Below, piece by piece: positions 27,432-59,668 of a stretch of 64,000 nucleotides of DNA. The notes below the pieces were generated by a model. The model did no database searches. It was given only the letters and a program-made list of their open reading frames with translations, and was not told the origin of the DNA. The first letter of the stretch is position 1, and each line of letters begins with the position of its first letter. This DNA comes from Dehalococcoidia bacterium (GTDB lineage: Bacteria > Chloroflexota > Dehalococcoidia > Bin125): positions 1,098,717 through 1,162,716 of the forward strand of contig CBDBPH010000001.1 in the NCBI GenBank assembly GCA_965208665.1, written 5' to 3'. Both the position numbers and the translations under genes were made by a program.

Positions 27432-27576
27432 CAGACTTCATCCTCGCTCCAGTGAACCACTCAGTAGAGATTGAAGCCGCGCTGTCCTGGAGTCCGAACG
27501 CATCCACATGCCAACAGGAAGGAGGTGGAATGTGGATGCCACATTTGCTCACTTCCAAGGTGTCATGTTGCTGATT

Positions 27577-27595
27577 CGAACAGAATAGCTGTTCC
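27577..27595. promoter_or_regulatory. Inverted repeat CGAACAG-N5-CTGTTCC about 150 nt upstream of dnaE (candidate operator)
   Basis: Direct reading of cgaacagaatagctgttcc shows perfect 6-bp arms GAACAG/CTGTTC. The GAAC...GTTC core is reminiscent of Cheo-type LexA boxes, but the spacing differs. Confidence 0.3.
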
Positions 27596-27721
27596 AAAAG
27601 CGCGCGGCGGATGCATCGACACGCGTCTCTTCGTGAAGCCCATCCGGGCGAAGTCCGACCGACAGAAACGGGCAGCCACAAGGACTGCCCCTACGGAATT
27701 GCCGATTGCCGCGGGTGGTTG

Positions 27722-28948
27722 CTAAATCTCCTGATCCAACTCAAACGCCGAGTGCAGCACCCGGACCGCCTCTTCACCGCGGTCCACGTTGACGAGACAT
27801 GTAATCCGAATCTCCGAGGTCGTGATCAGCTCAATGTTGATCCCCGCCTCGGAGAGCGAGCGGAACATCGTCGCCGCGTAACCCGGGCCGGACTGCATCC
27901 CCGTCCCGATCAGCGACACCTTGACCAGGTCGTGATTGAACAGCACGTCGGCCGCGCCCAGATCGGCGGCGAGCGGTTTACTGATCTCCTGCGTTCGTTC
28001 CCAGTCGTCGTCGGTCACCGTGAACGTCAGGTCGGTGAGTTGCAGCTCCGATGCGTTCTGGACGATCGTGTCCACAGATATACCCGCGTCGGCCAATGGT
28101 CCGAAGATCTGCGCCGCAATACCCGGCCGATCGGGCACATGACGCAACGTCACCGAGGCGACGTCGCGGTCCAGCGCGATCGTGCGCACCCTGTTCTCGG
28201 GCTCCATCAGAACCTCCCTGCGAATGATGGTCCCGCCGCCGGAGCCGAACTCCGATTGCGACGAGGCCACCAGGATTGGTATCTCGTACAACAGCCCCAA
28301 CTCGACCGCCCGCGGGTGCATCACGCCTGCGCCCTGCTGCGCAGCCTCCAGCATCTCCTCGGCCGCGATGTCCTTGAGGCAACGCGCCTGCGGTTCGATT
28401 CGCGGGTCGGTCGTGTAGATGCCCTGCACATCGGTGTAGATCTCAACCTGCGACGCCTTCAGCGCCGCGCCGAGGGCCACCGCCGACGTATCGGAGCCGC
28501 CCCGGCCCAGCGTCACATAGTCGCCTTGCGGGCTCTGCCCCTGGAACCCCGCCACCACGACCACATTGCCGGCCGCGAACTCCTCCTCGATCCGCCAGGT
28601 GTCGATCCCCCGAATCCGGGCGCGGCCAAAGGTCTCATCGGTGAACACGCCGGCCTGCGCGCCGGTCAATGCCACCGCGGGACAGCCCAGGTCTCCCAGC
28701 GCCATCGCCAGCAGCGCGCTCGAGACCATTTCGCCGGTCGCCATCAGCAGGTCGGTCTCCCGCCGCGGCGGCCGAGGATTCACGTCGCGCGCCAGCGCCA
28801 GCAGCTCGTCCGTGCTCTTGCCCATCGCCGAGACGACAACCGCGACCTGCTCGCCGTCAACCGCACGCGACGCGACGCGATGTGCAACATTCCGCAAGCG
28901 TTCAACTGATCCGACTGAAGTGCCGCCGTATTTCTGTACGACCGTCAC
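27722..28948 (-). CDS. lysC: Aspartate kinase
   Basis: 408 aa with KYGGTSV and VVVSAMGKSTDEL motifs and tandem C-terminal ACT domains. Confidence 0.93.
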   Translation of the reverse strand: MTVVQKYGGTSVGSVERLRNVAHRVASRAVDGEQVAVVVSAMGKSTDELLALARDVNPRPPRRETDLLMATGEMVSSALLAMALGDLGCPAVALTGAQAGVFTDETFGRARIRGIDTWRIEEEFAAGNVVVVAGFQGQSPQGDYVTLGRGGSDTSAVALGAALKASQVEIYTDVQGIYTTDPRIEPQARCLKDIAAEEMLEAAQQGAGVMHPRAVELGLLYEIPILVASSQSEFGSGGGTIIRREVLMEPENRVRTIALDRDVASVTLRHVPDRPGIAAQIFGPLADAGISVDTIVQNASELQLTDLTFTVTDDDWERTQEISKPLAADLGAADVLFNHDLVKVSLIGTGMQSGPGYAATMFRSLSEAGINIELITTSEIRITCLVNVDRGEEAVRVLHSAFELDQEI

Positions 28949-30536: not shown

Positions 30537-32178
30537 GGATGCGTACCCGGCGATACGGTTCCCGACCCTTGCTCACCGACTCCAGCGCCTGATCGCTCGC
30601 CAGTTGATGTTGCAGCTTGCGGATGTAAGGGTTTTGCGGCGTCAAATCGACCGCCGACTGCCTACCGGAATGAATCTGCGAAATCGCCTCTTCAGCTTCA
30701 GACAGTGCGGCCGTCACGGCGTCGTTCGGCGCCGAACCTTTTGACAGCGCCCGCAGGCTCTTCTCCATTTGCAACACGGTGTTGTGCTTCAGCACCACGA
30801 CCGGTAATCGTCGCGACTCGGCCAGGCGCAGCTCCGGCGGCCGACGCCGGAACGCGGTCCGCAGCGTCAACAGCACGTCCGCCTCCTCGACCCGCTCCGC
30901 GATTGAGACGTTCGCGCCGGTCTCACGGATCGCTTCACGCAGCCGCGACAGCGACACGCCCAACGGATAGATCTTCTGATGCGGGCCAGTCGACGCGGTC
31001 CGTCCGCGTGAAGCAGTACGACGCCTGAGCGGAGCCTCATGCGCCGAGCCGTTCCCGAACGACGGTCCGCTGCGCGGACCCGTCTGCGCCCCGAACGCCC
31101 GCGACAGGAAGTCATTCGTTGACGCTTCGAATCCCGTCCAGGAATCGTCGGAGACCATTGCATCGACGGAATCAGTTGACGTGTGGACCGCACCATCATC
31201 GTCCACTTCGCGGATCTCCGCCGCGACCGATTCGCCACGCAACAATGCGTCGACCGTGGTGCCGATGTCCGAGTGCAGGGCCACACGGGTGAACGACTGA
31301 ATCTCCACCAGCGCCTCGAAGGTCGGCGGAGCCTTGCGCTCGAGTACCGATTTGCGCGTGCCTCGGCGCCGCGCTTCCTCGTCCGACAGGGTGACCGTCT
31401 GAATCCCACCGATCAGGTCCACGAGCGTCGGATTGAGCATCAGGTTGGCCAGCGTGTTCCCGTGCGCGGTCGCGACCAGCTGTACCCCGCGTTCGGCAAT
31501 GGTCCGCGCCGCCTGGGCCTCCAGCTCCGTGCCAATCTCGTCGATCACGATCACCTCAGGCATGTGATTCTCGACCGCTTCAACCATCACCGAATGCTGC
31601 AACTCCGGCCGCTCCACCTGCATCCGACGGGCCCGCCCGATGCCCGAATGCGGGATGTCCCCATCTCCGCCGATCTCGTTCGAGGTGTCGACGATGATCA
31701 CGCGTTTCCCCTGCTCGGCCAACACCCGCGCCGCTTCGCGCAGAATCGTCGTCTTGCCGACCCCCGGACGCCCCAGCAGCAGGATTGAGGCCCCGGCCTG
31801 AACGAAGTCCTCGATCACCGAGACCGACCCTGACACGGCTCGGCCCACGCGCATCGTCAGGCCCACGACATCCTGCCGCCGATTACGTATGCAGGCAATC
31901 CGATGCAGCGTCCGTGGAATGCCGGCGCGGTTGTCCTTACCGAAATCGCCCAGCCCCGACATCACCATCTGCAGTTCCGCCTCGGTCACCTCCGACGCAC
32001 GCAACTCAAGCTCATCCTCGAGGAACCGCGCATACGGGGGACGACCAAGGTCGAGCACAATCTCCAGCAGATTGTCCTCGTCGCCATGTTCTACTACTGC
32101 TCGGCGAATGCCTTCCGGCAGCGTTGTCAGCAGCGCCGCCAGATCGTCGCTATGCACCGCCGACGTCAAGTCATTCAT
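30526..32178 (-). CDS. AAA+ ATPase with C-terminal R3H domain (SpoIIIAA/Ycf45-like)
   Basis: LLGRPGVGKTTILRE Walker A, VIIVDTSNEIGG, VIVIDEIG Walker B, then a long low-complexity linker and an R3H-type C-terminal domain. Confidence 0.8.
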   Translation of the reverse strand: MNDLTSAVHSDDLAALLTTLPEGIRRAVVEHGDEDNLLEIVLDLGRPPYARFLEDELELRASEVTEAELQMVMSGLGDFGKDNRAGIPRTLHRIACIRNRRQDVVGLTMRVGRAVSGSVSVIEDFVQAGASILLLGRPGVGKTTILREAARVLAEQGKRVIIVDTSNEIGGDGDIPHSGIGRARRMQVERPELQHSVMVEAVENHMPEVIVIDEIGTELEAQAARTIAERGVQLVATAHGNTLANLMLNPTLVDLIGGIQTVTLSDEEARRRGTRKSVLERKAPPTFEALVEIQSFTRVALHSDIGTTVDALLRGESVAAEIREVDDDGAVHTSTDSVDAMVSDDSWTGFEASTNDFLSRAFGAQTGPRSGPSFGNGSAHEAPLRRRTASRGRTASTGPHQKIYPLGVSLSRLREAIRETGANVSIAERVEEADVLLTLRTAFRRRPPELRLAESRRLPVVVLKHNTVLQMEKSLRALSKGSAPNDAVTAALSEAEEAISQIHSGRQSAVDLTPQNPYIRKLQHQLASDQALESVSKGREPYRRVRIHGG

Positions 32179-32193
32179 CGAGCAATCCTGCCT

Positions 32194-32847
32194 CTACGCC
32201 CGGTCCGAGAACCTGCACTCTCGGCCGGCGTAGCGACTGCACATTCTGATGAAGTGGCGGTGGAGTCGCCAGTCATCGGTCAACTCGGGATGGAAGGTCG
32301 TGGCCAGCAGCGATTTGTACTGCACCGCTACAGGCTCGAACCTGAAGGGCAAGCCCAACCGCAGAAGCACCTCCACGCCGTCTCCCACGTCGCAAATCCT
32401 TGGAGCGCGAATGAATACAGCATGAAGAGGACCGTCGCCCCCAAGTGCGCCTGGATCAAGGTCAGCCTCGAACGAATCGACCTGTCGCCCAAATGCGTTG
32501 CGCTCCACTGTCATCGGAAACAGATGTAAGCCGGGTCGATCCAGTGTCACGATTTTCGTGGCCAGCAGGATTGCGCCCGCACATGTCCCCCAAATCGGCA
32601 TCCCCTCAGCTGCCCTTGCCAGGAGCGGCTCACGCAGGTTGTACGCGATAAGGAGCCGTGCGATCGTGGTGCTCTCTCCTCCCGGAACAATCAAGCCGTG
32701 AACCTGTTGCAACTCGGCATTGGTTCGAACTTCTAGCGGCAACGCGCCAGCTCGGCGTACCGATGCCGAATGCTCGGCAAAGTCTCCCTGTAGGGCTAAC
32801 ACACCGATGACCGTCGGAGCGCTGTCCGTCAGTGCGAAGTCCCTCAC
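32194..32847 (-). CDS. pdxT: Pyridoxal 5'-phosphate synthase glutaminase subunit
   Basis: 217 aa with GVLALQGDF, GLIVPGGESTT and GTCAG catalytic Cys motifs. Confidence 0.93.
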   Translation of the reverse strand: MRDFALTDSAPTVIGVLALQGDFAEHSASVRRAGALPLEVRTNAELQQVHGLIVPGGESTTIARLLIAYNLREPLLARAAEGMPIWGTCAGAILLATKIVTLDRPGLHLFPMTVERNAFGRQVDSFEADLDPGALGGDGPLHAVFIRAPRICDVGDGVEVLLRLGLPFRFEPVAVQYKSLLATTFHPELTDDWRLHRHFIRMCSRYAGRECRFSDRA

Positions 32848-32884
32848 GGTGCCATTATGGCTGCGTTGACGAATGGCTGGTCAC

Positions 32885-33796
32885 CTACAGGCCTCGTTTC
32901 GCTAACAGCTCTGGCTCGGGGATCTCGCTAATCTCGAGACCTCGCATAGCCGGGGGCAGGTTCGTCGAAGTTTCGGCCAGGATTCCGTCGTCGTTGTAGT
33001 GGGTGACGGCTCGAACAATGGCATTCGCCATCTGCGCCGGATCCTCCGACTTGAAGATTCCGCTTCCGACAAACACGCCTTCTGCCCCCAGCCGCATCAT
33101 CAACGCGGCATCCGCCGGCGTTGCTACGCCGCCAGCGGCGAAGTTCACGACAGGCAAGCGACCGTTCTCACGAGTCTCGCGTAGCAGTTCGACGGGAGCG
33201 CCAATGTCCCGCGCGTACGGGACCAACTCTTCCTCACCGACTGCCTGCAGCTCCTTGATCGAGCCTTGCACGGACCGCATATGGCGCACCGCTTCGACGA
33301 TGTTGCCGGTCCCGGCCTCTCCCTTGGTCCGGATCATCGCCGCACCTTCCGCGATTCGACGCAGTGCCTCGCCCAAATCTCGGCAGCCACACACGAACGG
33401 AACTGCGAAGCCATGTTTATCGATGTGAAACACTTCGTCTGCCGGCGTCAACACCTCTGACTCGTCAACGAAGTCAACCCCCATCGCTTGGAGAATCGAG
33501 GCTTCGACGAAGTGACCAATCCGCACCTTGGCCATCACAGGAATCGACACCGCGTCCATAATCCCTTGAATCAGCGCCGGATCGGACATCCTCGCCACGC
33601 CACCAGCCGAGCGAATGTCAGACGGCACTCGCTCCAACGCCATTACTGAGCATGCTCCAGCCTCCTCTGCGATTTTGGCATGCTCAGGCGTAACAACATC
33701 CATGATGACGCCACCCTTGAGCATCTGGGCCAAGCCTTCTTTGACAGTTCGCGTCGCCGCCTCTACGACCATGTGGCTCCCTTCACTCCTGTTCAA
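32885..33796 (-). CDS. pdxS: Pyridoxal 5'-phosphate synthase lyase subunit
   Basis: 303 aa with [19 protein letters not shown] and [13 protein letters not shown] motifs of PdxS/SNZ. Confidence 0.95.
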
Positions 33797-33835
33797 GCGC
33801 AGTGTATCGCGCTGCAGCAGCCCGCTTCCGGTTCC

Positions 33836-34699
33836 CTAGGCAGTCGCAATCGCCGTCTCCAACTCGTCCACCTCGCCACCACCGGCCATGAGGTATGACA
33901 GGCTCTCAAGCGTCAGCGTTTCGCTGCGCCGATCCTCAACCAGGCGCCCGCGCTGGAACACCAGGAATCGATCACCCACCCAAAATGCGTGCTGTGGCTT
34001 CGGTGTCACGAGGACGACCGCCGTTCCGCGCTGCGCTGCACGCCGAATCAGACGAAGCACGGCGCCCGATTGGCGCACACCCAGCGCCGAAGTCGGCTCG
34101 TCGAGGATCAACACGCGCGCGCCGTAGTACAGCGCCCGAGCAATGGCCAGACCTTGGCGCTCTCCGCCCGACAAAGTGTGCGCTGCGCGATCGGGATCGC
34201 CCAGATCAACGCCCAGCTTCTCGAGCTCGGACTGCATCGCCTCCTTGGCGTAGGCGACATCGAAGCGCTGGAATATTCCCCATCCCTTGACCGGCTCCGC
34301 TCCCATGAAGAAGTTGCGCCACAGCGACATCAGCGGCGAGATCGCCAGATCCTGGTAGACCGCCACAATTCCCTGCGAGCGCGCCTGGCGAGGGGAGCCG
34401 AACTCGGTGGGCGTGCCATCGAGCAGGATTTCTCCTTCGCTGGGCCGAATCAAGCCGCAGAGCATCTTGATGAAAACCGATTTGCCGGCCCCGTTGTCTC
34501 CGACGACGCAGGTCACCTCACCTGCGCGCAGCGCCACATTGACATCCTGCAGCGCTGTCACCGCCCCGAACTGCCGGCCCAGCCCGCGCACCTCCATGAC
34601 CGGCACATCCTGTCGCTCAGTCGGCGGCGCCGCGCCGTCGTCTTGTTCGGATATCTGCTCGGTTGCCATGTCATGCTCCAACTTGCCGACTTGCGGCAT
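33836..34699 (-). CDS. ABC transporter ATP-binding protein (single-NBD, CUT2-like sugar type)
   Basis: GDNGAGKS Walker A, LSGGERQ signature and ILDEPT Walker B. Confidence 0.88.
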   Translation of the reverse strand: MPQVGKLEHDMATEQISEQDDGAAPPTERQDVPVMEVRGLGRQFGAVTALQDVNVALRAGEVTCVVGDNGAGKSVFIKMLCGLIRPSEGEILLDGTPTEFGSPRQARSQGIVAVYQDLAISPLMSLWRNFFMGAEPVKGWGIFQRFDVAYAKEAMQSELEKLGVDLGDPDRAAHTLSGGERQGLAIARALYYGARVLILDEPTSALGVRQSGAVLRLIRRAAQRGTAVVLVTPKPQHAFWVGDRFLVFQRGRLVEDRRSETLTLESLSYLMAGGGEVDELETAIATA

Positions 34700-49465: not shown

Positions 49466-49548
49466 GGCCAGATTCCTTCCTCAATCGCCGAATGGACTGA
49501 TCGAGTCGGCGGATTAGAACCATCTTCGCACGAACGACCGCTCCCGCG

Positions 49549-50751
49549 CTATTCCAGGATGGTCGTGACCGCGCCCGCGCCGACTGTGCGGCCGCCCTCG
49601 CGAATCGCGAAACGCAAACCCTCCTCCAGCGCAATCGGCGAGATCAGGCGCACCTGCATCTGCACGTTGTCCCCAGGCATCGCCATCTCCACCCCCTCCG
49701 GCAAGCCAATCTCGCCCGTCACATCCGTCGTGCGAATGTAAAACTGCGGTCGGTAGCCCGGGAAAAACGGACTGTGCCGCCCGCCCTCGTCCTTACTCAG
49801 GATGTACACCTCCGCCGTAAACGCTGTGTGCGGCGTGATCGAACCCGGCGCCGCCAACACCTGTCCGCGCGTGATCTCGTCCCGGTCAATGCCACGCAAC
49901 AGACAACCCACGTTGTCCCCCGCCTCGCCCGTCGGCAGCGTCTTCTTGAACATCTCCACGCCCGTCACCACCGTCGTGCGCGTGTCCTTGATCCCCACTA
50001 TCTCAATCTCCTCGCCACTGTTCACCACCCCCCGCTCGATCCGCCCCGTCGCCACCGTGCCCCGCCCCTTGATCCCGAACACGTCCTCAATCGGCATCAA
50101 AAACGGCTGCTCCACCGGCCGCGGCGGCGTCGGCACGTACTCGTCCACCGCCTCCATCAACTCCATGATCGAGGCGTACTCCGCCGCACTCGGATCCGTC
50201 GAGTCCGACTCCAACGCGTGCAACGCCGAACCGCGGATCACCGGAATGTCGTCCCCCGGAAACTCGTAGTCACTGAGCAGCTCCCTGACCTCCAACTCGA
50301 CCAGGTCCAACAACTCCTCGTCGTCCATCTGATCCACCTTGTTCAGGTAGACCACCATCCGCGGCACCCCCACCTGGCGCGCCAACAAGATGTGCTCCCG
50401 CGTCTGCGGCATCGGTCCGTCCGGAGCGGCGACGACGAGAATCGCGCCGTCCATCTGCGCCGCACCCGTAATCATGTTCTTGATGTAATCCGCGTGACCC
50501 GGCGCGTCAATGTGCGCGTAGTGCCGCTGCTCCGTCTCGTACTCCACGTGCGCAATCGCAATCGTGATCCCCCGCGCGCGCTCCTCCGGCGCCTTGTCAA
50601 TCGAGTCGAAACTCGAAAACGACACGTTCTCCGACTGCATCGCCAACGCCTTCGTGATCGCCGCCGTCAGCGTCGTCTTGCCGTGATCCACGTGCCCAAT
50701 CGTGCCCACGTTCACGTGCGGCTTGGTTCGCTCGTATACCTGTCGCGCCAT
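49549..50751 (-). CDS. tuf: Elongation factor Tu (copy 2, tRNA-linked tufB-like copy)
   Basis: 400 aa, differing from copy 1 by a single residue (YETEQRHY here versus YETEARHY). Nucleotide identity is confined to the coding region. Confidence 0.97.
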
Positions 50752-51028: not shown

Positions 51029-51114
51029 TGGTGCCGGGGGCAGGATTCGAACCTGCGAAGCCTTTCGGCGCCGGTTTTACAGACCGGTGGTATTAGCCAC
51101 TCACCCACCCCGAC
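51029..51114 (-). tRNA. tRNA-Tyr (anticodon GUA, long variable arm)
   Basis: Reverse complement reads GTCGGGGTGGGTGAGTGGCTAATACCACCGGTCTGTAAAACCGGCGCCGAAAGGCTTCGCAGGTTCGAATCCTGCCCCCGGCACCA. The anticodon loop CTGTAAA gives GTA, and the acceptor stem pairs GTCGGGG/CCCCGGC. Confidence 0.85.
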
Positions 51115-51217
51115 ACTCTTCTCATCTTACTCCCATCCTCCTCCTCCGCACATCCACCGGACAGCCCCGCAGAGCGTCAATCTCTGTTCACCAGCACGCA
51201 AACAGATCGAGTCCAAC

Positions 51218-51293
51218 TGGAGCCCAAGGGGGGATTCGAACCCCCAACCTGCCGATTACAAATCGGCTGCGCTGCCAATTGCGCCACCTGGGC
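51218..51293 (-). tRNA. tRNA-Thr (anticodon UGU)
   Basis: Reverse complement reads GCCCAGGTGGCGCAATTGGCAGCGCAGCCGATTTGTAATCGGCAGGTTGGGGGTTCGAATCCCCCCTTGGGCTCCA. The anticodon loop TTTGTAA gives TGT. Confidence 0.85.
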
Positions 51294-51354
51294 CTGCCTC
51301 GATCCTAGACCGATCTCCCCATCGCGATCCGTTGTGAGCTAGGGCTCAGCTCCT

Positions 51355-51420
51355 CCTGTCTCCTCCCCCTGCGGGAGAGGGTTAGCGCCTGCCCCGCACT
51401 TGATGCGGGGGGTGCGGACC
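51355..51420. repeat. GC-rich palindromic intergenic repeat element (family member 1)
   Basis: Contains the hairpin GCCCCGCACTTGATGCGGGG and an upstream GAGAGGGTTAGCGCCTGCCCC segment. Both segments recur at 56821..56950. Confidence 0.6.
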
Positions 51421-51528
51421 CATCCATCGACAGTTTTTTGCACTTGACGACGTCAACTGGCTCCCTATCCTGCTATTGCGTTTATTCATCATTCCGAACA
51501 TCCAATAAACGCTTGGTAAGGGACTCCC

Positions 51529-52260
51529 GTGACACGCATCCTGATTGCCGCCGTTGCAGCGGCATTCGTGGCCGGCGCCATCGGCCTGGCCTCCATGCAA
51601 CCGGTCTCCGCCCAACCCGGCGGACCATCCGTCTGCCTCTCCCTCCCGCCCGGAGACCACACCTTCACCGCTCCCTCGCAGGACCGTGAGGGCGAGGTGT
51701 CGTTCACGGTCACCGTCGGAGATGGCGGCCTCGTGACCGCCTTCACCGAGCCGGGCGGACAGTCGATCCCACCCGTCGCGATGCTCGAAATCTTCACCGG
51801 CGAAGACGCCTACCCACTCCCGGAAGGTGTCTCATTCATCGAATGTGAAGCTTCCGGCGACGGCATGCAGGAGGCCGGCAAGGCGCCCGAGCTGTGTCTC
51901 AACCTCGATCCGGGCACCTACGAGGAATCCGTCAGCGCCAGCGGCAGGGTCGTCGACATCACGATCCACGTCGGCGAAGGCAACCGGTTGATCGCGGTCG
52001 ACGTCCTTGGCGAATCATACGGGCCCGCCGAAGCGCTCGACCTGCTCGCCCAGTTCGGCGCATCCATCCCGCCCCACATCGAGATCGTGCCGTGTGAGCC
52101 GACCAAGGCATTCCCCTACACCGGTAGCGGTGGCCTCGCCGACACAAGCAGTCTCGCCGGCCTCTGGGCCGGACTGGCTTCGCTCGCCGTGGTCCTGATC
52201 TCGATCGCCGCCTTCAGGCAACGACGACGCATCGTCATTCGCCGCGACGACGAAGTCTAG
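51529..52260 (+). CDS. Secreted protein with C-terminal sortase-type sorting signal (cell-surface anchored candidate)
   Basis: N-terminal signal peptide (MTRILIAAVAAAFVAGAIGLASMQPVSAQP). The C-terminus reads FPYTGSGG, then a ~25-aa hydrophobic helix, then RQRRRIVIRR, that is an LPXTG-like tripartite motif / TM / basic-tail architecture. Confidence 0.7.
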   Translation: MTRILIAAVAAAFVAGAIGLASMQPVSAQPGGPSVCLSLPPGDHTFTAPSQDREGEVSFTVTVGDGGLVTAFTEPGGQSIPPVAMLEIFTGEDAYPLPEGVSFIECEASGDGMQEAGKAPELCLNLDPGTYEESVSASGRVVDITIHVGEGNRLIAVDVLGESYGPAEALDLLAQFGASIPPHIEIVPCEPTKAFPYTGSGGLADTSSLAGLWAGLASLAVVLISIAAFRQRRRIVIRRDDEV

Positions 52261-53720
52261 AAGCGCAACGCGCTCTCAACCAGCGACTCGGCGCCGGGCT
52301 CCTCCTCGACCTGCTCAGGTTCAGGCTGGACTCGGCGCCAACGCGTTCCGTCGCGCGTGTCCTCCAGCGCCACACCCAGATCCGTCAGACGATCGCGAAC
52401 CGAATCCGCCAGCTCGTACTGCCTCGCCCCGCGCAACTCCTGGCGGATTGAGACCAGCAGGTCAATAAACGGCTCCGCGTCCGACTCACCGCTCGCGGAC
52501 ACACCGGCGAAGCCGAGACCGAGCACGTCGCCCAGCTCGACGAGGGCTCGCTGGGCCAACCCGGCCGGGCGATCGTCGGAGCGCGCCCGATTGACCTCCC
52601 GCGCCAGGTCGAACAACACCGCCAGCGCCTGCGGCGTGTTCAGATCATCGTCCAGCGCCGCGATAAACGTCTCCCGCGCGTCGGTCGGATCGAGCTCACC
52701 CTCGCCGTCGACCAGCGGAAGCATCGCCGCCGTTCGCAACCGCTCCGCTCCGCGCGCCGCAGCCGACAACGACTCCTCCGAGTAGGTCAGCGGCGAACGG
52801 TAGTGCCCGCCCAGGACGAACATCCGCAGGCCGTCCGCGCCGTATCGATCCAGGCCCTCGCGCAACGCGACGATCTTGCCGGTCGACTTCGACATCTTCT
52901 CCCCGCCGACCTGCATCATCGCGTTGTGCATCCAGTGACGCACGAACGGATCGAGGCCCGAATATCCCTCCGACTGAGCGATCTCATTCTCGTGATGCGG
53001 AAAAATCAGATCCATCCCGCCGCCGTGTAGATCGATCTGCTCACCCAGGTAACGAATTGACATCGCCGAACACTCGATATGCCAGCCCGGACGACCCGGC
53101 CCCCACGGACTCTCCCACTGCGGCTCGCCCGGCTTCGCGCCCTTCCAGAGCGTGAAGTCCATCGCGTGCTCTTTTGCGACGCCGATGTCGGTCGGTTCCG
53201 CCGAGATCATGTCGTCCAACGACCGGCCCGAGAGCTTGCCGTAGCCGGGCATCTCGCCGACGCGAAAGTACACGTCGCCGCCCGCCGGATAGGCCATGCC
53301 CTTCTCGATCAGCTCGCCGATCAGATCCAGCATCTGCGGAATCTCCTCGGTCGCCCGCGGATGCACATCGGCCGGCGCGATGCCCAGCTCGCGCCACTCG
53401 CCCATGAACGAGGAGATCTGCCGTTCTGCCAACTCAGAGACCGAAATCCCCTCCTGCGCCGCGCGAGCGATGAGCTTGTCGTCGACATCCGTGAAGTTGT
53501 ACACCAGCCGCACGCGCCGCCCGCGCCACTCCAGAAACCGCCGAAGCGTGTCGAAGATGATGATCGACATCGCGTGGCCCAGATGTGCGTCGTCGTACGG
53601 CGTGATCCCGCAGACGTACATCGAGATCGGATCATCCAACGGCTCAAACGGCTGTTTGCGACGTGTCAGCGTGTTGTACAGCTTCACGGACCAACCCCCA
53701 AGCGCGATCAATACAGGCAA
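52257..53720 (-). CDS. cysS: Cysteine--tRNA ligase
   Basis: HLGHA (HIGH) motif, KMSKS motif and zinc-binding Cys in class I aaRS order. Confidence 0.95.
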   Translation of the reverse strand: MPVLIALGGWSVKLYNTLTRRKQPFEPLDDPISMYVCGITPYDDAHLGHAMSIIIFDTLRRFLEWRGRRVRLVYNFTDVDDKLIARAAQEGISVSELAERQISSFMGEWRELGIAPADVHPRATEEIPQMLDLIGELIEKGMAYPAGGDVYFRVGEMPGYGKLSGRSLDDMISAEPTDIGVAKEHAMDFTLWKGAKPGEPQWESPWGPGRPGWHIECSAMSIRYLGEQIDLHGGGMDLIFPHHENEIAQSEGYSGLDPFVRHWMHNAMMQVGGEKMSKSTGKIVALREGLDRYGADGLRMFVLGGHYRSPLTYSEESLSAAARGAERLRTAAMLPLVDGEGELDPTDARETFIAALDDDLNTPQALAVLFDLAREVNRARSDDRPAGLAQRALVELGDVLGLGFAGVSASGESDAEPFIDLLVSIRQELRGARQYELADSVRDRLTDLGVALEDTRDGTRWRRVQPEPEQVEEEPGAESLVESALRF

Positions 53721-53760
53721 CGGCTATCGATCAAAGCCTAATCAACCCTCCCGTCACCCA

Positions 53761-53812
53761 TCTCCCCCCGCTTCGCGGGGGGCGATGCCGAATGCAGAGG
53801 GGGACACGCTCC
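53761..53812. repeat. GC-rich palindromic intergenic repeat element (family member 2)
   Basis: TCTCCCCCCGCttcGCGGGGGGcGATGCCGAAtGCAGAGGGGG is near-identical to 56963..57010 (TCTCCCCCCGCctccgGCGGGGGGaGATGCCGAAgGCAGAGGGGGG). Confidence 0.6.
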
Positions 53813-53826
53813 GATCCCGACGAGCC

Positions 53827-54537
53827 TTATCCCGCAGCCGTCTCTCCCGGCTGATCACCCGCATCATCCACCTGATCCCGCAGTCGCCGAATCTCCAACC
53901 GCAACTCTGCCACCGACAACTCGAGCGACTCAATCCGGTCATGCTCCGGGTCTGGCAGACGCAACACCGTGTCGTCCCCCGGGTCGTAGTAGGCCACCAC
54001 GTGCCCGGGCACGCCGACCACCGTCGAGTGCGGCGGCACGTTCGAGACCACCACCGCTCCAGCCCCAATTCGCGCTCCGGTCCCAATCGAGACCGCGCCA
54101 ATGATCGAGGCCCCGGCGCCCACCAGCACGTCGGCGCCGAACATCGGGTGGCGCTGCTTGCGCATCGTCGATGTCCCGCCCAGTGTGACCCCCTGGTGCA
54201 GGTGGCAACGCTTGCCGAGTCGCGCTGTCTCCCCGATCACCACCCCCATGCCGTGGTCAATCAAACACGGCGTGGCGATCTGCGCCCCCGGGTGAATCTC
54301 GATCCCGGTCATGTTCCGCCCCAGGTGGGACAGAAATCGGGGCAACACCGGAACCTCAAGCCGAAGCAGAGCGCCCGATATCCGATGCAGCATCAACGCG
54401 TGAACACCGGGATAGGCGAGCAGCACCTCGACCCAGTTCGTCGCCGCTGGATCGCGCTCCATCGTGAACTGGATGTCCGCCCACGTATTGTCGACGAACG
54501 AGTTGTACCAACCGGCAAGCCGTACCAGGAGCTCCAT
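53827..54537 (-). CDS. cysE: Serine O-acetyltransferase
   Basis: N-terminal SAT helical domain plus left-handed beta-helix hexapeptide repeats (GVVIGETARLG...GVTLGG...). Confidence 0.93.
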   Translation of the reverse strand: MELLVRLAGWYNSFVDNTWADIQFTMERDPAATNWVEVLLAYPGVHALMLHRISGALLRLEVPVLPRFLSHLGRNMTGIEIHPGAQIATPCLIDHGMGVVIGETARLGKRCHLHQGVTLGGTSTMRKQRHPMFGADVLVGAGASIIGAVSIGTGARIGAGAVVVSNVPPHSTVVGVPGHVVAYYDPGDDTVLRLPDPEHDRIESLELSVAELRLEIRRLRDQVDDAGDQPGETAAG

Positions 54538-54559
54538 GTCAGCAGCCTATACGTCCTCG

Positions 54560-55771
54560 CTATCCGTCCTCGTTATGCGGGCGTCTCACCCGCAGCGTTG
54601 CCACGGCGTGCGCGGCGATTCCCTCGCCGCGCCCCAGCGCCCCCATCCCTTCGGCGGTCGTCGCGGCGACGTTGACCGCTAACCTCCCGAGCCCCAGTGC
54701 CGCTGCCAACTCGCCGCGCATCGCCTCCACGTGAGGCCGCAGCCGCGGACGTTCGGCAATCACCGTGGCATCAACCGACTGAGGACTCGCGCCCACGGCG
54801 GCCAGCCGTTCCAGAACCATCGGCAGCATCGCGATGGAACTCGCATCTTCCCATTCGGGTTCCGAAGTTCCAAAGTGAGCGCCGATATCGCCCAATCCCC
54901 CGCCGCCCAGCAGCGCATCGATGATCGCATGCGTCAGGACGTCGGCATCCGAGTGTCCGGCCAGACCGGCCGCGTCGGGAACCGTGACGCCGCCCAGGAC
55001 GAGTTCGCGCTCGGGCGTGAAGCGATGGAAGTCGATCCCGATTCCCGTTCGCACCTCGAATGTCGCGCCGAGCAACGCCTCCGCGACCACGAGGTCCGAC
55101 GGCGACGTGATCTTCGGATTGGGCTCGCCCATATCGTGCACCACCACCGACTCGCCCAGTCGCTCGACAAGCGCAGCGTCGTCGGTGGCCAGGACTCCGT
55201 CCCGCTGCGCCTGTTCGTGAGCGCGTCGCAGCGTCTCCGCTCGAAACACTTGCGGAGTCGCCACCGCTCGCAGCGTCGAACGAGTCGGCGTCGCCTGGAT
55301 CTGCGCGCGCTCGTCAACCACCTTGATCGTGTCCACTGCCGGTCCGCCGGCAACCACCCCGACGCCGTCCCGGGCGCGATCGACGCAGCCGGCGATGGCT
55401 CGCGCCGAAATCATCGGACGTGCGCCGTCGTGCACCGCCACGACTCCCGCGTTTCGCAGCGCCGCCAGCCCGGCGCCGACCGAATCCTGTCGCTCCTGGC
55501 CCCCGGTCACCAGGGCCCGGACCTTGTCAAGCCCGCGGCAGAGTTCCGCGACGGCCGATCGATTCGCCTCCGATGTCACCACCACGATGTCGGTAACCGC
55601 TTCGCAATCCTGGAACGCAGCCAGGCTCCAACTCAACACGGGGCGCCCGGCCAGGTCTGCCAGCAGCTTGTCTCCGCCCCCCATCCGACGGCTGCTGCCG
55701 GCCGCCAGGATGATTGCCCCCACTCTCCCCTCCGGCCTCACGCCCCCGTCCTCACTCGATCTCCTGCTCAA
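54560..55771 (-). CDS. ispDF: Bifunctional 2-C-methyl-D-erythritol 4-phosphate cytidylyltransferase / 2,4-cyclodiphosphate synthase (IspDF)
   Basis: N-terminal IspD (AIILAAGSSRRMG) fused to C-terminal IspF (GIGIDFHRF...GHSDADVLTHAIIDALLGG). Confidence 0.93.
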   Translation of the reverse strand: MSRRSSEDGGVRPEGRVGAIILAAGSSRRMGGGDKLLADLAGRPVLSWSLAAFQDCEAVTDIVVVTSEANRSAVAELCRGLDKVRALVTGGQERQDSVGAGLAALRNAGVVAVHDGARPMISARAIAGCVDRARDGVGVVAGGPAVDTIKVVDERAQIQATPTRSTLRAVATPQVFRAETLRRAHEQAQRDGVLATDDAALVERLGESVVVHDMGEPNPKITSPSDLVVAEALLGATFEVRTGIGIDFHRFTPERELVLGGVTVPDAAGLAGHSDADVLTHAIIDALLGGGGLGDIGAHFGTSEPEWEDASSIAMLPMVLERLAAVGASPQSVDATVIAERPRLRPHVEAMRGELAAALGLGRLAVNVAATTAEGMGALGRGEGIAAHAVATLRVRRPHNEDG

Positions 55772-56729
55772 CCGCCAACTGGGCGAATACCATCCGCCCC
55801 GCCTGCGTCTGAATCACTCGTTTGACCACCAGCGAACGCAACTCACCGATCGCCTCCGCCCCCTCCTCGACTACCACCATCGTCCCGTCCGCGAGATACC
55901 CCACGCCTTGGTCCTCCCCGCGCCCGCGTTCGATCACCTCCACTGTCAACGGCTCGCCCGGCAACACATTGGTCTTCACTGCATTGGCCAGCACGTTGAG
56001 GTTCAGCGTTCTCACGCCCTCCAGTTCCGCCACCCGAGCCAGGTTGGCATCCGTCAGCGCCAGCGCCGCGCCGCGCTCGACCGCCATCCGTACCAGCCGC
56101 GCGTCGACATCACCGTCCGATTCCGTCGAACCATCGTCCACAATCTCCGCGCCCACCGTTGCATCCGACTGCAGCCGCGACAGCAACTCCAGTCCCGCCC
56201 GGCCCCGGCCGCGCCTCTGCGAGTCCGAGCTATCCGCCACGCGCCGCAGCTCATCGAGCACGAACCGCGGCACCACAACATTGGCCAGGATGAATCCGCT
56301 GGTCGCCACCTCGGCGATGCGGCCGTCGATGATCGCCGAGGTATCGAGGATCACCTCCGATGGCGCCGGCGGACGGCTCAGCGTCACAGACTCCGCCCGT
56401 CCGCGGACCGTACTCACAAACCGCTCAACCTCGGCACGGCGACCCAGCGCCACCCCGATTCCGATCGGGGCGAGAAGAATCGCCACTCCGATCGGGGCGA
56501 AGTGCCCTGCCGCTCCCGGCAGGTTGTCCAACACCGTCGACAGCAGCGACGCCGCGACCAGCGCAGCAACCAGCCCAAACCCGCCCAGCAGGATCTCAAG
56601 CGTCGACAGCGAACGCCAGATCCCCTGGCGAATCCACGTGACCGGCTGGATCAGCCAGTCCCAAAACCGAAACGCTGCCTCCGTCACGACAGCCCCCAGC
56701 AAAGAAAATGGCGGCCATGCGGCCGCCAA
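55752..56729 (-). CDS. PIN/TRAM domain membrane protein (YacL-like)
   Basis: N-terminal TM segments, a PIN domain (ILDTSAIIDGRI) and a C-terminal TRAM-like domain. yacL-ispD-ispF adjacency is as in Bacillus. Confidence 0.78.
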   Translation of the reverse strand: MAAAWPPFSLLGAVVTEAAFRFWDWLIQPVTWIRQGIWRSLSTLEILLGGFGLVAALVAASLLSTVLDNLPGAAGHFAPIGVAILLAPIGIGVALGRRAEVERFVSTVRGRAESVTLSRPPAPSEVILDTSAIIDGRIAEVATSGFILANVVVPRFVLDELRRVADSSDSQRRGRGRAGLELLSRLQSDATVGAEIVDDGSTESDGDVDARLVRMAVERGAALALTDANLARVAELEGVRTLNLNVLANAVKTNVLPGEPLTVEVIERGRGEDQGVGYLADGTMVVVEEGAEAIGELRSLVVKRVIQTQAGRMVFAQLAVEQEIE

Positions 56730-56814
56730 TCAGTCCAGAGCGGTCAACCGCCCAATAAATCCGGGCGCATCCCTGCGCACTTCCAATCATACAGGATTCC
56801 ATTCCCCTTGGTCC

Positions 56815-57010
56815 GCTATCGGCTCCCCTCTCTCTCCGCGAAAGGGCTAGAGCCTGCCCTCGCGAAGGGGGGGTAAGGGCCTCCCCGTTCCCCGCTCCCC
56901 CTCTGATACCCCGCACACGCTCATCCGACGCCCCGCACTTGATGCGGGGCCCAGCCCCATTCCCCTCTCCCCCCGCCTCCGGCGGGGGGAGATGCCGAAG
57001 GCAGAGGGGG
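56815..57010. repeat. Composite cluster of the GC-rich palindromic repeat family (all three modules)
   Basis: A 410-nt divergent intergenic region carries module A (CTCCCC...GAAAGGGCTAGAGCCTGCCC), module B (GCCCCGCACTTGATGCGGGGC) and module C (CTCCCCCCGC-N5-GCGGGGGGAGATGCCGAAGGCAGAGGGGGG). Confidence 0.6.
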
Positions 57011-57140
57011 GCATCCCCAGCTCCCCCGACTCGATCGCGGACCTGCTCCCCAACCGTCAACTCCGACACACCCTCCGCCCCACATAGAACACCAGTACGT
57101 ATATGATCAATCGCCTATCGCCACCGAGAGGACCCCAACC

Positions 57141-57575
57141 ATGACCGCCGCCAACGCCATGACCGCCCCACGCGCCCCCGCCGCCGTCAACCCGCCGCTG
57201 CCGCTGCGCAAGGATGCCATCCTCAATCACCTCGCCCATCACGCCACCAACGGACCCGCCTACGTCCAACTCGGCGCGACCAAAGCCCTCGCCCGCCTCA
57301 CCGGCCTCTACGCCGAAGCCCGCTACGAGGCCCAACTCGCCTTCGAGACCGCCCGTGAAGCGGTCCGTGAAGCCACCCACGAGGCCACCAGCCGGGCCAC
57401 CGACAAGGCCACCGACAAGGCCCGGACCGCATACGAGCGGGTCGCCCAACTGATGAACGGCGCCGAAGTCACCGAGGAAGACCTCGGCGGCTTCGCCAAA
57501 TTCGTCAAGCAGCGCGAGGAAGCAGAAGAGGAAGAAGAGGAAGGCTCCGGCAATGACGAGGACGAACCACCCTAA
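57141..57575 (+). CDS. Hypothetical helical protein with poly-Glu C-terminal tail
   Basis: 144 aa, predicted alpha-helical with A/E/T-rich repeats (EATHEATSRATDKATDKA) and a C-terminal EEAEEEEEEGSGNDEDEPP tail. No known motif. Confidence 0.45.
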   Translation: MTAANAMTAPRAPAAVNPPLPLRKDAILNHLAHHATNGPAYVQLGATKALARLTGLYAEARYEAQLAFETAREAVREATHEATSRATDKATDKARTAYERVAQLMNGAEVTEEDLGGFAKFVKQREEAEEEEEEGSGNDEDEPP

Positions 57576-57790
57576 TCCACAGACCACCCGGCAGTTCGCC
57601 ATCGTCGAGCTGCTGCACGACGGGCGCGGTTTTTTTCCGACCCACCGCCAACGCCAACTCTTCGAAGCGCTCCTCAGCGCCCCCTACCCCGCTCCAGACG
57701 CCGATCTGGACGCGGACCGCCTGACCGTGCTCTCTGGTAGCGTGAATCCACCAATCGCGTCGCGCTTGAAAGACGACTGCGAGTCCCGCA

Positions 57791-59668
57791 ATGCCCACCA
57801 TCGACATCGATCCCCTCCTGCGCGGCGTCTCCAAGCCCGCCCGCTACGTCGGCGGCGAGTGGAACGCAATCGAGCACGACTGGAACGAGCGCGCCGTCCG
57901 CTGGGCCCTGATCTACCCGGACCTCTACGACATCGGCCAGTCCAACGGTGGCCTCGCCATCCTCTACGACGTCCTCAACCACACCGACGACACGCTTGCC
58001 GAGCGCTGCTACACCCCCTGGCCCGACATGGCCGACAGCCTGCGCAGCCGCGGCCAACCGCTCTTCTCTCTTGAAAACCGGCGCGGCCTACGCGACTTCG
58101 ATGCCCTCGGCTTCTCGCTCTCCTACGAGCTCACCTACACCAACATCCTCGAGATGCTCGACCTCTCCGGCATCCCGATTCGCAGCCTCGACCGCGATGA
58201 GAACGATCCACTCATCCTCGCCGGGGGCTCCGGCGCGCTCGTCCCCGAACCACTCGCTCCGTTCATCGACGCCTTCGTCCTCGGCGAGGCCGAAGACGTC
58301 ATCCTTGAAATCAACGACCTCCTCCACGAGGCCAAGTCTCAAGGCGCATCCCGTCTCGACCTGCTGCGAGCCCTCGCGCGAACTCCCGGCGTCTACGTGC
58401 CCCGCTTCTATGAATGGCGGTACGAAACCGACGGAACGCCCGCCGAGGTCTTCGCCACCGACGACGCGGCCTCCGTTCCCGTCGTCAAGCGCTTCCTCCA
58501 GGGACTCCCGCCGATTCTGACCAATCCGATCGTCCCGTACCTGCAAACCGTTCACGACCGCGCCGGGATCGAGATCCAGCGTGGCTGCACGCAGGGCTGC
58601 CGGTTCTGCCAGGCCGGCATGATCTACCGCCCGCTGCGCGAACGCACGCCCGAGGAAGTCGTCGCCGGAGCCAGGGAACTCTTCCGCAACACCGGCTTCG
58701 ACGATCTCTCGCTCGTCTCCCTCTCCTCCACTGACCACTCGCAGATCAAGGCCATCGTCCGAGCATTGCGCTCGGAGTTCGGCGACGACATCGGCATCTC
58801 CCTGCCCTCCACCCGCGTCGACAGCTTCAGCGTCGATGTCGCCCTGCTCTGCTCGCCGCGCAAGAAACACTCGATGACCTTCGCCCCCGAGGCCGGCTCC
58901 CAGCGACTGCGCAACGCTGTCAGCAAGGTCGTCGACGAGCAGGACTTGCTCGACGCCGCCCGCAACGCCTTCGAACAGGGCTGGACGTCGATCAAGCTCT
59001 ACTTCATGGTCGGTCTACCGACCGAGACCATGTCCGACGTCGAGGGCATCGTCGACTGGGCCTCGCAGGTACGCCAGATTGGCCGTCAAATCGTCGGCAA
59101 CCGCGTTCGCGTTCGGGTTTCCACCTCGAATCACGTGCCCAAGGCGCACGCACCCTTCCAGTGGGCCCGACAGGAAACGCCGGCCGAACTCGAACCCAAG
59201 CACCAACTGCTCAAGCAACGTACCCGCAAAGCCCGCCTCGACCTGAGCTGGAACGACCCGCAAGAATCGATCCTCGAAGGCGTCCTCTCCCGCGGTGACC
59301 GCCGCCTCGCCCCTGTGATCGAGACCGCCTGGCGCAACGGCGCCCGCTTCGACGCCTGGAGCGAGCATCTCCGCGAGGACCTCTGGTGGAACGCCATGGC
59401 CCAGGAAGGTCTCGATCCCGCTTTCTACTGCCATCGCGAGCGCGACCTTTGGGAGCGCTTCCCCTGGATGCACATCGCCTCCGGGGTTTCCGAGGCCTTC
59501 CTGCGCAAGGAATGGCAGCGCACCTGGAAGGAACTCACCACCGCCGACTGCCGCGACGGCTGCAACGTCTGCGGCATGGAACACGCCGCACAGCTTTGCG
59601 AACTCAAACTCGGCGACCTGATCGCCAAACGTCGTGCCCCATCTGAGGAACTCATCAGCGTCCTATAG
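57791..59668 (+). CDS. B12-binding domain-containing radical SAM protein (TIGR03960-like)
   Basis: N-terminal B12-binding-like domain, radical SAM CTQGCRFC (CxxxCxxC) and a C-terminal extension domain. Confidence 0.88.
   Translation: MPTIDIDPLLRGVSKPARYVGGEWNAIEHDWNERAVRWALIYPDLYDIGQSNGGLAILYDVLNHTDDTLAERCYTPWPDMADSLRSRGQPLFSLENRRGLRDFDALGFSLSYELTYTNILEMLDLSGIPIRSLDRDENDPLILAGGSGALVPEPLAPFIDAFVLGEAEDVILEINDLLHEAKSQGASRLDLLRALARTPGVYVPRFYEWRYETDGTPAEVFATDDAASVPVVKRFLQGLPPILTNPIVPYLQTVHDRAGIEIQRGCTQGCRFCQAGMIYRPLRERTPEEVVAGARELFRNTGFDDLSLVSLSSTDHSQIKAIVRALRSEFGDDIGISLPSTRVDSFSVDVALLCSPRKKHSMTFAPEAGSQRLRNAVSKVVDEQDLLDAARNAFEQGWTSIKLYFMVGLPTETMSDVEGIVDWASQVRQIGRQIVGNRVRVRVSTSNHVPKAHAPFQWARQETPAELEPKHQLLKQRTRKARLDLSWNDPQESILEGVLSRGDRRLAPVIETAWRNGARFDAWSEHLREDLWWNAMAQEGLDPAFYCHRERDLWERFPWMHIASGVSEAFLRKEWQRTWKELTTADCRDGCNVCGMEHAAQLCELKLGDLIAKRRAPSEELISVL

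Follow-up and report, generated by a model that had tools for sequence, protein, structure and literature searches.

What are the GC-rich palindromic modules that recur between the genes of this stretch of Chloroflexota DNA, and what property of them is conserved? The window, by which we mean the whole 64,000-nt stretch analysed from the Dehalococcoidia bacterium contig CBDBPH010000001.1, carries three such modules, A, B and C, in the spacers tRNA-Thr(-)/open reading frame (ORF) 51529(+) (locus 1), cysS(-)/cysE(-), and PIN-YacL-like(-)/ORF 57141(+) (locus 3). A preliminary description of the same DNA had read them as three separate modules, of REP/BIME or miniature-repeat type or else a small structured RNA family. 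We consider it likely that they are intact and decayed copies of mosaic short dispersed repeats of the BoxC/PIT/TMECO intrastrand-triplex-motif kind. In the basic unit, a pyrimidine run (Y) is followed, after a loop, by the purine run that complements it in Watson-Crick fashion (R) and, after a second loop, by a further purine run (RH) that mirrors R. We make this assignment because a class II intrastrand purine-motif triplex is defined by a strand that carries a Y run, the complement of that run and a mirror purine run, where the third run is able to form G.GC, A.AT or T.AT triads antiparallel to the purine run.

The modules are indeed present where they had been reported, each twice against 0.03-0.05 occurrences expected from dinucleotide-preserving shuffles. 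Module B (GCCCCGCACTTGATGCGGGG) is an exact 20-mer at 51391-51410 and 56930-56949; with up to three mismatches it has 2 matches against 0.03 expected, and 0 of 100 shuffles reach two. The 3' half of module C (GATGCCGAANGCAGAGGGGG) lies at 53784-53803 and 56991-57010 (2 against 0.05 expected). Module A, searched as the degenerate pattern GARAGGGYTAGMGCCTGCCC, lies at 51375-51394 and 56840-56859 (2 against 0.05) and gives the least similar pair among the three. All window copies are intergenic, as had been claimed. The units and the segment that carries the first of them are the following.

51315 to 51429, + strand: lineage-specific segment of ~115 nt in the tRNA-Thr/ORF 51529 spacer, carrying the A+B composite (~12 nt in syntenic relatives)
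51358 to 51417, + strand: composite BoxC/TMECO-type unit of locus 1, with R domain and loop 2 matching E. coli TMECO type A
53759 to 53806, + strand: C1, a degraded C-type unit in the cysS/cysE spacer (covariance model 47.8 bits, E 9.4e-10)
56824 to 56885, + strand: degenerate A-type (BoxC-like) unit of locus 3, containing the module A match at 56840-56859
56930 to 56950, + strand: free-standing B hairpin GCCCCGCA-cttga-TGCGGGGC, with the exact 20-mer (fold -11.1 kcal/mol, z -3.8)
56964 to 57013, + strand: C2, an intact C-type unit (covariance model 69.2 bits, E 6.5e-15)

Module C is a complete unit, made up of Y, loop, R, a GNA-looped mini-hairpin and the mirror purine run. In C2 these are Y TCTCCCCCC (56966-74), the apex GCC-TCC-GGC, R GGGGGGAGA (56984-92), the P3 mini-hairpin T-GCC-GAA-GGC-A (56993-57003) and the mirror third domain GAGGGGGG (57004-11). 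C2 has a perfect 12-bp stem and a DNA fold with z -3.4; by inspection its domains give 9/9 Watson-Crick pairs and 9/9 triads, and it is the sole strict class II intrastrand-triplex pattern that our scanner finds on the + strand of the window (0.27 per shuffled window). C1 follows the same plan, with Y TCTCCCCCC (53761-69), apex GC-TTC-GC, R GGGGGGCGA (53777-85), P3 T-GCC-GAA-TGC-A and third domain GAGGGGG (53797-53803); its covariance-model match has 2 broken pairs and its fold reaches a z of only -1.2. The order is fixed in the aligned copies: a Y run (consensus CTCTCCCCCC, often after TCCCC), the apex, R GGGGGGAGA, T-P3-A, and GAGGGGGG. The three C-type domains have 9 nt (TCTCCCCCC / GGGGGGAGA / AGAGGGGGG), the apex is variable (GC-N3/4-GC or CTTGC) with apical loops of 3-4 nt forming loop 1, and an 11-nt mini-hairpin with GNA at its tip serves as the second loop; across C-type units this second loop measures 11-15 nt, or ~35 nt with nested hairpins.

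Several features of these copies bear on what is conserved. First, the last purine run mirrors the R arm and repeats it neither directly nor in inverted form. The search pattern does not account for this run, because it is kept (GAGGGGG) in 62 of the 65 copies whose P3 departs from the search pattern; one of the three copies without it, in L096 (related genome stretches carry L numbers here), holds an insertion of the IS110 family. Since the mirror repeat GGGGGGAGA...AGAGGGGGG cannot arise by templated copying, it would reflect selection on a property or fold of the strand. Second, the P3 stems co-vary (GCC/GGC, GTCAC/GTGAC, GTCCC/GGGAC, GTCGC/GCGAC), while the P3 loop is GNA in ~60 of the same 65 copies and its complement is never seen. 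Third, a C-type variant in L204 has changed in all three domains in a compensatory manner, to Y CTTCCCCC / R GGGGGAAG / RH GAAGGGGG. On sequence grounds, the mirror domain, the joint change of three domains and the strand-specific GNA loop all argue that the fold of this G-rich strand of DNA is the conserved property.

The three modules belong to a single mosaic repeat system and are not independent elements. At 51358-51417, A and B form one composite unit, so the separation drawn in the preliminary description fails there; the B hairpin at 56930 is on its own. The composite consists of a Y-like run tctcctccccc, the loop tgc, the R domain GGGAGAGGG (51373-51381), loop 2 TTAGC, a nested B hairpin GCCTG-CCCCGCA-cttga-TGCGGGG (51387-51410) and a degenerate third domain GGTGCGG, with a DNA fold of -17.7 kcal/mol (z -2.6). 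Locus 1 A+B is a single BoxC unit whose second loop contains a nested hairpin. Module A comprises the R domain and the second loop (GGGAGAGGG-TTA/CTA) of a classic BoxC/TMECO unit, and module B is a separate accessory hairpin, found alone or nested in the second loop of A- or C-type units. The A-type unit at 56824-56885 comprises Y ctcccctctctctcc, the loop gcgaa, a truncated R aggg, CTAGA, a nested hairpin GCCTGCCC-tcgcgaa-GGGG and the third domain GGGTAAGGG; its layout is that of L202 and L117, with 90% identity to L117 over 31 nt. Of the stable 8-10-bp G:C stems described earlier, what holds is that the module stems are perfect GC-rich hairpins of 8-12 bp; degradation has affected the copy at 53761 and the A unit at 56824-56885, whose folds are weak (z -1.2 and -1.0) and no better than those of shuffles.

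Nesting also occurs in several related loci. The A-type units of L117 and L202 join R, loop 2 and the GCCTGCCC hairpin, and C-type P3 loops take the form GCCGAA[AGCCTGCCCC...GGGG]GGCAGAGGGG (L036, L046, L098, L198), the GCCTGCCCC hairpin being an apparent insertion into the GAA loop. A fourth hairpin type, GTCATTCCCGC-GCAA-GCGGGAATCTCGCC, stands in three tandem copies in the tRNA-Thr/ORF spacer of L203 (reverse complement) and also occurs in L202, L033 and L036; in L033 and L036 a B-type hairpin is nested in its loop.

The triplex layout was read from the sequence first, and a full-text search for a related 18-mer then led to Holder et al. 2015 (PMC4666352), in which the BoxC repeats of E. coli, re-described as PIT elements, became 'TMECO', with the pattern CCCTCNCCC-N3-6-GGGNGAGGG-N3-GGGNGAGGG. 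TMECO has 3610 copies in 262 proteobacterial genomes, is always intergenic in K-12 and commonly forms inverted pairs; its oligonucleotides fold in vitro into a stable purine-motif intrastrand triplex, as seen by circular dichroism and nuclear magnetic resonance, and block DNA polymerase in vitro (PMC4666352). In the related Chloroflexota loci, 14 sequences fit this pattern exactly, among them units with the second loops TTA and CCG seen in E. coli. One of the 14 has matches of 88-91% identity in 5410 of 5426 complete E. coli genomes, at a median of 17 places per genome. The TMECO family is present in Chloroflexota with the very loop types, TTA and CCG, that it has in E. coli. BoxC/PIT repeats were reportedly also treated by Bachellier et al. 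in the 1990s and by Hoyne and Maher in 2000; to our knowledge, BoxC/PIT/TMECO elements have been known since the 1990s without a known function or mode of spread. In the window, GGGAGAGGG-TTAGC (51373-51386) of locus 1 equals the R domain and TTA loop of TMECO type A (Table 1, PMC4666352). No window copy fits the full pattern; the A-type copies fail it because of nesting and decay, the third domain of locus 1 being degenerate and displaced by the 24-nt nested hairpin and R at locus 3 being truncated.

The units described here thus share with BoxC/TMECO the domain order of Y, loop, R, loop and mirror R, the sequence of the A-type units (88-91% identical to E. coli copies, in relatives), and their habit as intergenic, multi-copy repeats, often in inverted pairs, at loci variable between close relatives and without an associated transposase. 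They differ in the host, Chloroflexota not being mentioned in the main text of PMC4666352, and in the C-type unit, which has other domain sequences (TCTCCCCCC/GGGGGGAGA/AGAGGGGGG), does not fit the TMECO pattern, is missing from the 5426 E. coli genomes, and has an 11-nt GNA mini-hairpin as second loop, over the 1-6 nt limit of the ITxF definition (0-10 nt in Hoyne et al.). They also differ in the accessory hairpins nested in the second loop and in some in-frame genic copies, where E. coli TMECO is described as always intergenic. Units with a hairpin in the second loop would escape the published triplex search (ITxF). We regard the novelty as moderate: the Chloroflexota host clade, the C-type variant, the nesting and the in-frame copies are new here, and the kind of element is already known. 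A bolder proposal, which we put forward only tentatively and hold to be the less probable view, is that the C-type is a distinct, previously undescribed, cross-phylum mobile element of ~45 nt with the core GGGGGAGATGCCGAAGGCAGAGGGGG (hairpin, GNA mini-hairpin and mirror purine run), whose G-strand fold would be the substrate of a copying machinery, and which would have been active recently and would land in frame in essential genes.

How widespread is the C-type unit? A scan with GATGCCGAANGCAGAGGGGG of one genome per species (596 Gb; counts by family are among the matches listed) gave at least 132 exact copies of the C core in at least 117 genome stretches. Local chance, a reading that the preliminary description had left open, is therefore refuted, because further copies exist in related genomes. 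The same description had proposed a covariance-model search. The model, built from 47 copies, recovers exactly two full units in the window, C1 and C2, and 207 matches in 835 kb of related DNA, with 94% of alignment cells paired and both-side changes in 61 cells against 18 in shuffles; Rfam gave no match at the modules. Among the matches listed, most lie in Chloroflexota/Dehalococcoidia metagenome-assembled genomes with chromosomes of 3.0-3.7 Mb, whose names (IRC, RHO, SB0664, OZ24... chromosomes) presumably point to marine sponge metagenomes. One chromosome, OZ242281.1, carries at least 17 repeat blocks. The upstream hairpin is shared by all real C-core matches listed; the sole listed match without it, inside a Prevotellaceae gene (L074), is of a sort that 596 Gb would be expected to yield by chance. 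Outside the window, the exact B 20-mer occurs in L036 (twice), L065, L082 (twice), L084 and one IMG/VR contig, and A-like sequences occur in L084 and L117.

Outside Chloroflexota, the C core with its hairpin is found in Flavobacteriaceae, Aequorivita, Lentimicrobiaceae, Saprospiraceae, Prolixibacteraceae and other Bacteroidia, and in Chlorobiota, Abditibacteriales and Dialister. Dialister UBA734 and a 'Paludibacteraceae' bin (L008, L045, L047, L072) contain near-identical palindromic repeats of ~270 nt with long inverted arms that include the C core, a distribution that points to mis-binning as one candidate cause. The C-type has no match in the 5426 E. coli genomes or in the PLSDB plasmids and one weak partial match in a phage collection (52% of the query, E 0.3); it occurs on two IMG/VR contigs, and a full-text search of the literature for the C-core sequence found no paper.

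Of 88 classified copies among the matches listed, 81 are intergenic and 7 genic by GC3-based gene calls. The genes that flank the intergenic copies are co-directional in 52 cases (35+17 by unit orientation), convergent in 21 and divergent in 8, and inverted unit doublets of ~140 nt occur in Dehalococcoidia. In AT-rich Bacteroidota genomes, the C core lies in frame inside genes for MnmE, the tRNA1(Val) m6A37 methyltransferase, DUF4301 and HsdM (L018 2432-2476, L021 728-772, L091 7110-7154 and L086 1166-1210). In Aequorivita, a clade of species has the insert in the methyltransferase (245 aa, ...NPPFYSPPLPSASPPKGEK...), other species are without it (236 aa), and A. todarodis has it in another frame. 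Behaviourally, this methyltransferase clade recalls the Rickettsia palindromic elements, in-frame repeats inherited with functional genes. Those elements are 100-150 bp long, are confined to one genus and have no purine/pyrimidine mirror architecture. They receive a mention in PMC3733652.

Do the units persist at a given site as a host element would? The three loci and their surroundings hold the following genes.

51218 to 51293, - strand: tRNA-Thr
51529 to 52260, + strand: ORF without a Pfam match
52257 to 53720, - strand: cysS
53827 to 54537, - strand: cysE
54560 to 55771, - strand: ispDF
55752 to 56729, - strand: PIN/YacL-like gene
57141 to 57575, + strand: ORF 57141, without a Pfam match
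57791 to 59668, + strand: radical SAM gene

A syntenic series was assembled through IspDF homologues by protein-database and exact-protein look-ups; a metagenome scan for IspDF gave only relatives at up to 54% identity. The series, by identity of IspDF to that of the window, is as follows.

L198: 94%
L199: 89%
L200/L201: 88%
L202: 81%
L203: 79%
L204: 75%

All three loci show gain, loss and replacement of modules across seven syntenic genomes, and the flanking genes and promoters are conserved. At locus 1, the flanks ...ctagaccgat and acagttttttgcacTTGACG... are ~115 nt apart in the window and ~12 nt apart in L198, L199, L200 and L202. At locus 3, the whole module block and ORF 57141 are missing in L199 and L200; in L198 the orthologues of A, B and C are all there, but they show many indels, P3 contains a nested hairpin and the P2 loop is inverted. 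L202 and L204 have other module combinations. The cysS/cysE spacer holds a unit in all seven genomes, in constant orientation and of five kinds: C-type (window, L198), short A-like (L199, L200), A-type with a nested hairpin (L202), three tandem TMECO units (L203) and the C-type variant (L204). Between C1 and its orthologue in L198, 4 of 48 positions differ, and the flanking spacer shows 2 differences in ~78. The orthologue has the family consensus at all four positions and scores 73.8 bits against 47.8 for C1, because two of the four changes in C1 break pairs. In E. coli, TMECO loci are likewise more variable between strains than control loci (PMC4666352).

ORF 57141 (57141-57575, with flanks 57030-57790) encodes 144 aa and has its own T-rich terminator-like end; homologues are found in L198, L202, L203 and L073. 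In L199 and L200, the radical SAM gene follows directly on the upstream region of yacL.

These comparisons bear on the possibility that the modules are a structured RNA family, that is, a cis-regulatory element, a stability or processing element or a terminator without a U-tract, for example in the cysE-cysS intercistronic region. The folds are strong and significant, P3 and the P2 apex carry the compensatory changes counted above, the cysE-cysS unit keeps one orientation in all seven genomes, copies are enriched downstream of genes, and pyrimidine-motif triplexes can form in RNA (PMC4666352). However, we regard an RNA family as improbable, and the earlier suggestion of one is not supported. 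Relative to the neighbouring genes, the units point either way (35 against 17); their type at one spacer varies by genome, and they are missing or replaced at other orthologous sites; the cysE-cysS copy of the window has lost pairs; and other copies are in frame in MnmE, the tRNA methyltransferase, DUF4301 and HsdM. With Rfam 15, only tRNAs reach threshold in the window, no plausible match emerges over 51100-57300 even when E is allowed to rise to 10, and nothing is found at the motif in 18 related loci. The modules are not classical intrinsic terminators, as the preliminary description had recognised: no T-tract follows the module hairpins, and a terminator scan of both strands calls none of them. 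Indeed, PIT/TMECO elements of E. coli have neither promoter nor terminator activity (PMC4666352). A TnpB/IscB guide RNA scaffold, a ribozyme, a CRISPR repeat, a tRNA-derived element, and an attenuator built on alternative pairing of two G runs were also considered and found no support from gene context or Rfam.

Which strand, then, and which nucleic acid does selection see? Both the GNA loop and the mirror run single out the G strand, and RNA reportedly does not form the purine-motif triplex of that strand (PMC4666352). In the orthologous C2, the apical loop is TCC in the window (56978-56980) and its reverse complement GGA in L198, and the P2 loops in general occur alongside their complements (TCC 9/GGA 3, GAA 6/TTC 2, TCT 5/AGA 4, TTT 4/AAA 4). 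Such inversions are the product expected of hairpin or cruciform flipping in DNA and suggest that it is frequent. C-GNA-G closes exceptionally stable DNA mini-hairpins. Together, these observations point to DNA, and to its G-rich strand. An asymmetry between G:T and A:C mismatches (75 against 43) was considered as an RNA-strand signal and set aside, as it reflects subfamily variants in the Y domain and not independent events. The G-rich reading lies on the C-skewed strand, by the GC skew of 8-kb blocks, in 53 of 73 copies (53:20), including all window copies. It is a matter of speculation that this bias reflects avoidance of a polymerase-blocking fold on the strand exposed in lagging-strand synthesis. 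The GC skew is negative throughout the window, from -0.03 to -0.23.

If the units are dispersed DNA repeats, it remains to place them among the known kinds. Strict REP/REPIN elements are hairpins recognised as single-stranded DNA by RAYT, an HUH tyrosine transposase encoded once per genome, which copies them. The REP/BIME/REPIN elements of Enterobacteria and Pseudomonas, surveyed in PMC3733652, resemble our units as short GC-rich palindromes of high copy number in mosaic clusters and inverted doublets, with a preference for the 3' side of genes, as insertion targets of IS110/IS1111-type elements, and with occasional intragenic copies. Our intergenic multi-copy palindromes include ~140-nt inverted doublets that resemble REPINs and a BIME-like cluster at locus 3, and their orientation is biased relative to GC skew. 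A GGGGWSAS motif in the terminal inverted repeats of some RAYT-like genes (PMC3733652) resembles GGGGAGAG. In OZ242281.1, an IS110-family element (L096 2704-3690; Pfam DEDD_Tnp_IS110 and Transposase_20) lies inside the mirror purine domain of a doublet arm and splits the doublet by ~1.2 kb, a single such case, as IS110/IS1111 elements do in REPs. In contrast, of 188 C-type copies, no more than 12 (~6%) have the REP tag GTAG within 14 nt, and the same limit holds for CGTC; CGAC/CGAT precedes some B copies inconsistently. The mirror-repeat third domain is not a feature of REPs, and the identical core recurs in several phyla, whereas a REP family is usually confined to one species. A phmmer search of 5143 ORFs from ~0.9 Mb of repeat-bearing loci, with IS200 and RAYT sequences as queries, turned up no IS200- or RAYT-like ORF, a weak negative, RAYT being a single-copy gene; nor were transposase remnants found near E. 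coli TMECO copies (PMC4666352). A strict REP system is thus unlikely, if the least improbable of the alternatives. The repeat-type half of the preliminary description stands in so far as the units are multi-copy, mosaic and intergenic, and has to be amended from REP in the strict sense to BoxC/PIT/TMECO.

Miniature inverted-repeat transposable elements (MITEs), deletion derivatives of insertion sequences with DDE transposases that are moved in trans and have terminal inverted repeats and target-site duplications, would account for the C core inside the ~270-nt palindromic elements of Dialister and Paludibacteraceae, for the ~140-nt doublets of Dehalococcoidia, and for the clean presence and absence between relatives. 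A possible duplication, CCATCG, lies at both edges of the locus 1 insertion. However, single units of 45-50 nt have no terminal inverted repeats, their ends being mirror images; no parent insertion sequence with matching ends was found, and the sole insertion sequence seen, that of the IS110 family, interrupts a unit. The target-site duplication is not consistent, and the filled and empty methyltransferase genes of Aequorivita are too diverged to resolve one. An origin as MITEs appears to us very improbable.

We propose for the BoxC/PIT/TMECO-type units the following scheme. The selected feature would be the fold of the G-rich single DNA strand, namely hairpin, triplex and GNA mini-hairpin, a proposal drawn from sequence. 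This fold may form transiently during replication or repair, and the repeats would spread as selfish DNA by a structure-dependent copying process. Two local effects are conceivable: First, the units may promote local genome instability, in keeping with what has been published for E. coli and with the variation at all three loci here. Second, where they are transcribed, as between cysE and cysS, the strong RNA hairpin may act as a buffer at the 3' end of the preceding message, in the manner of REPs. The data as a whole support units that behave as selfish or neutral dispersed repeats, with a one-strand DNA fold as their conserved property.

Several points weigh against this reading. No mobilising enzyme was found in the repeat-bearing loci, and there is no consistent target-site duplication, the only candidate, CCATCG, being imperfect. 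In E. coli, DMS (dimethyl sulfate) footprinting gave no in vivo triplex signal in double-stranded DNA (PMC4666352). In ~55-60% of copies, RH could alternatively pair in Watson-Crick manner with an upstream CCCCTCT, giving a three-way junction. The location statistics come from crude GC3-based gene calls, and the skew of GC in 8-kb blocks is only a proxy for the direction of replication. Finally, the constant presence of a unit at cysE-cysS in all seven genomes could mean a host function there; this constancy is compatible with old occupancy rewritten by conversion between copies, with an insertion hot spot, or with host use, for example as an intercistronic RNA hairpin.

The BoxC/PIT/TMECO assignment has practical consequences. 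Spacers of this kind should be annotated as dispersed repeats, not as small RNAs or terminators. The units are modular, turn over between very close relatives and can ride in frame inside genes. If the mobile C-type element proposed above is real, it has been active recently enough to differ between genomes 94% identical in IspDF, and the high copy number and many filled and empty sites in complete chromosomes of sponge-associated Chloroflexota would make the spread mechanism of BoxC-type repeats tractable.

Beside the repeats, the window shows a few further features. On the - strand at 56690-56800, a GC hairpin (56728-56709) is followed by the T run TTTTCTTT; ~22 nt downstream of them comes the GTG (56687) that is the likely start codon of the PIN/YacL-like gene. 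This stretch of ~100 nt is conserved in all seven syntenic genomes, unlike the adjoining repeat modules, and has no Rfam match; it may serve the yacL-ispDF-cysE-cysS cluster as a leader or attenuator. Two tuf copies, one in the str operon and the other after a tRNA-Thr/Tyr/Thr cluster, share a 300-nt stretch at 98% identity (1349-1648 and 49546-49845). A tandem array at 14096-14317, with an 18-nt period and ~9 in-register copies that are 65-78% alike, is probably a coding repeat. The GC content dips to 0.60-0.61 at 26001-28000 and 32001-34000, compared with ~0.65 elsewhere.

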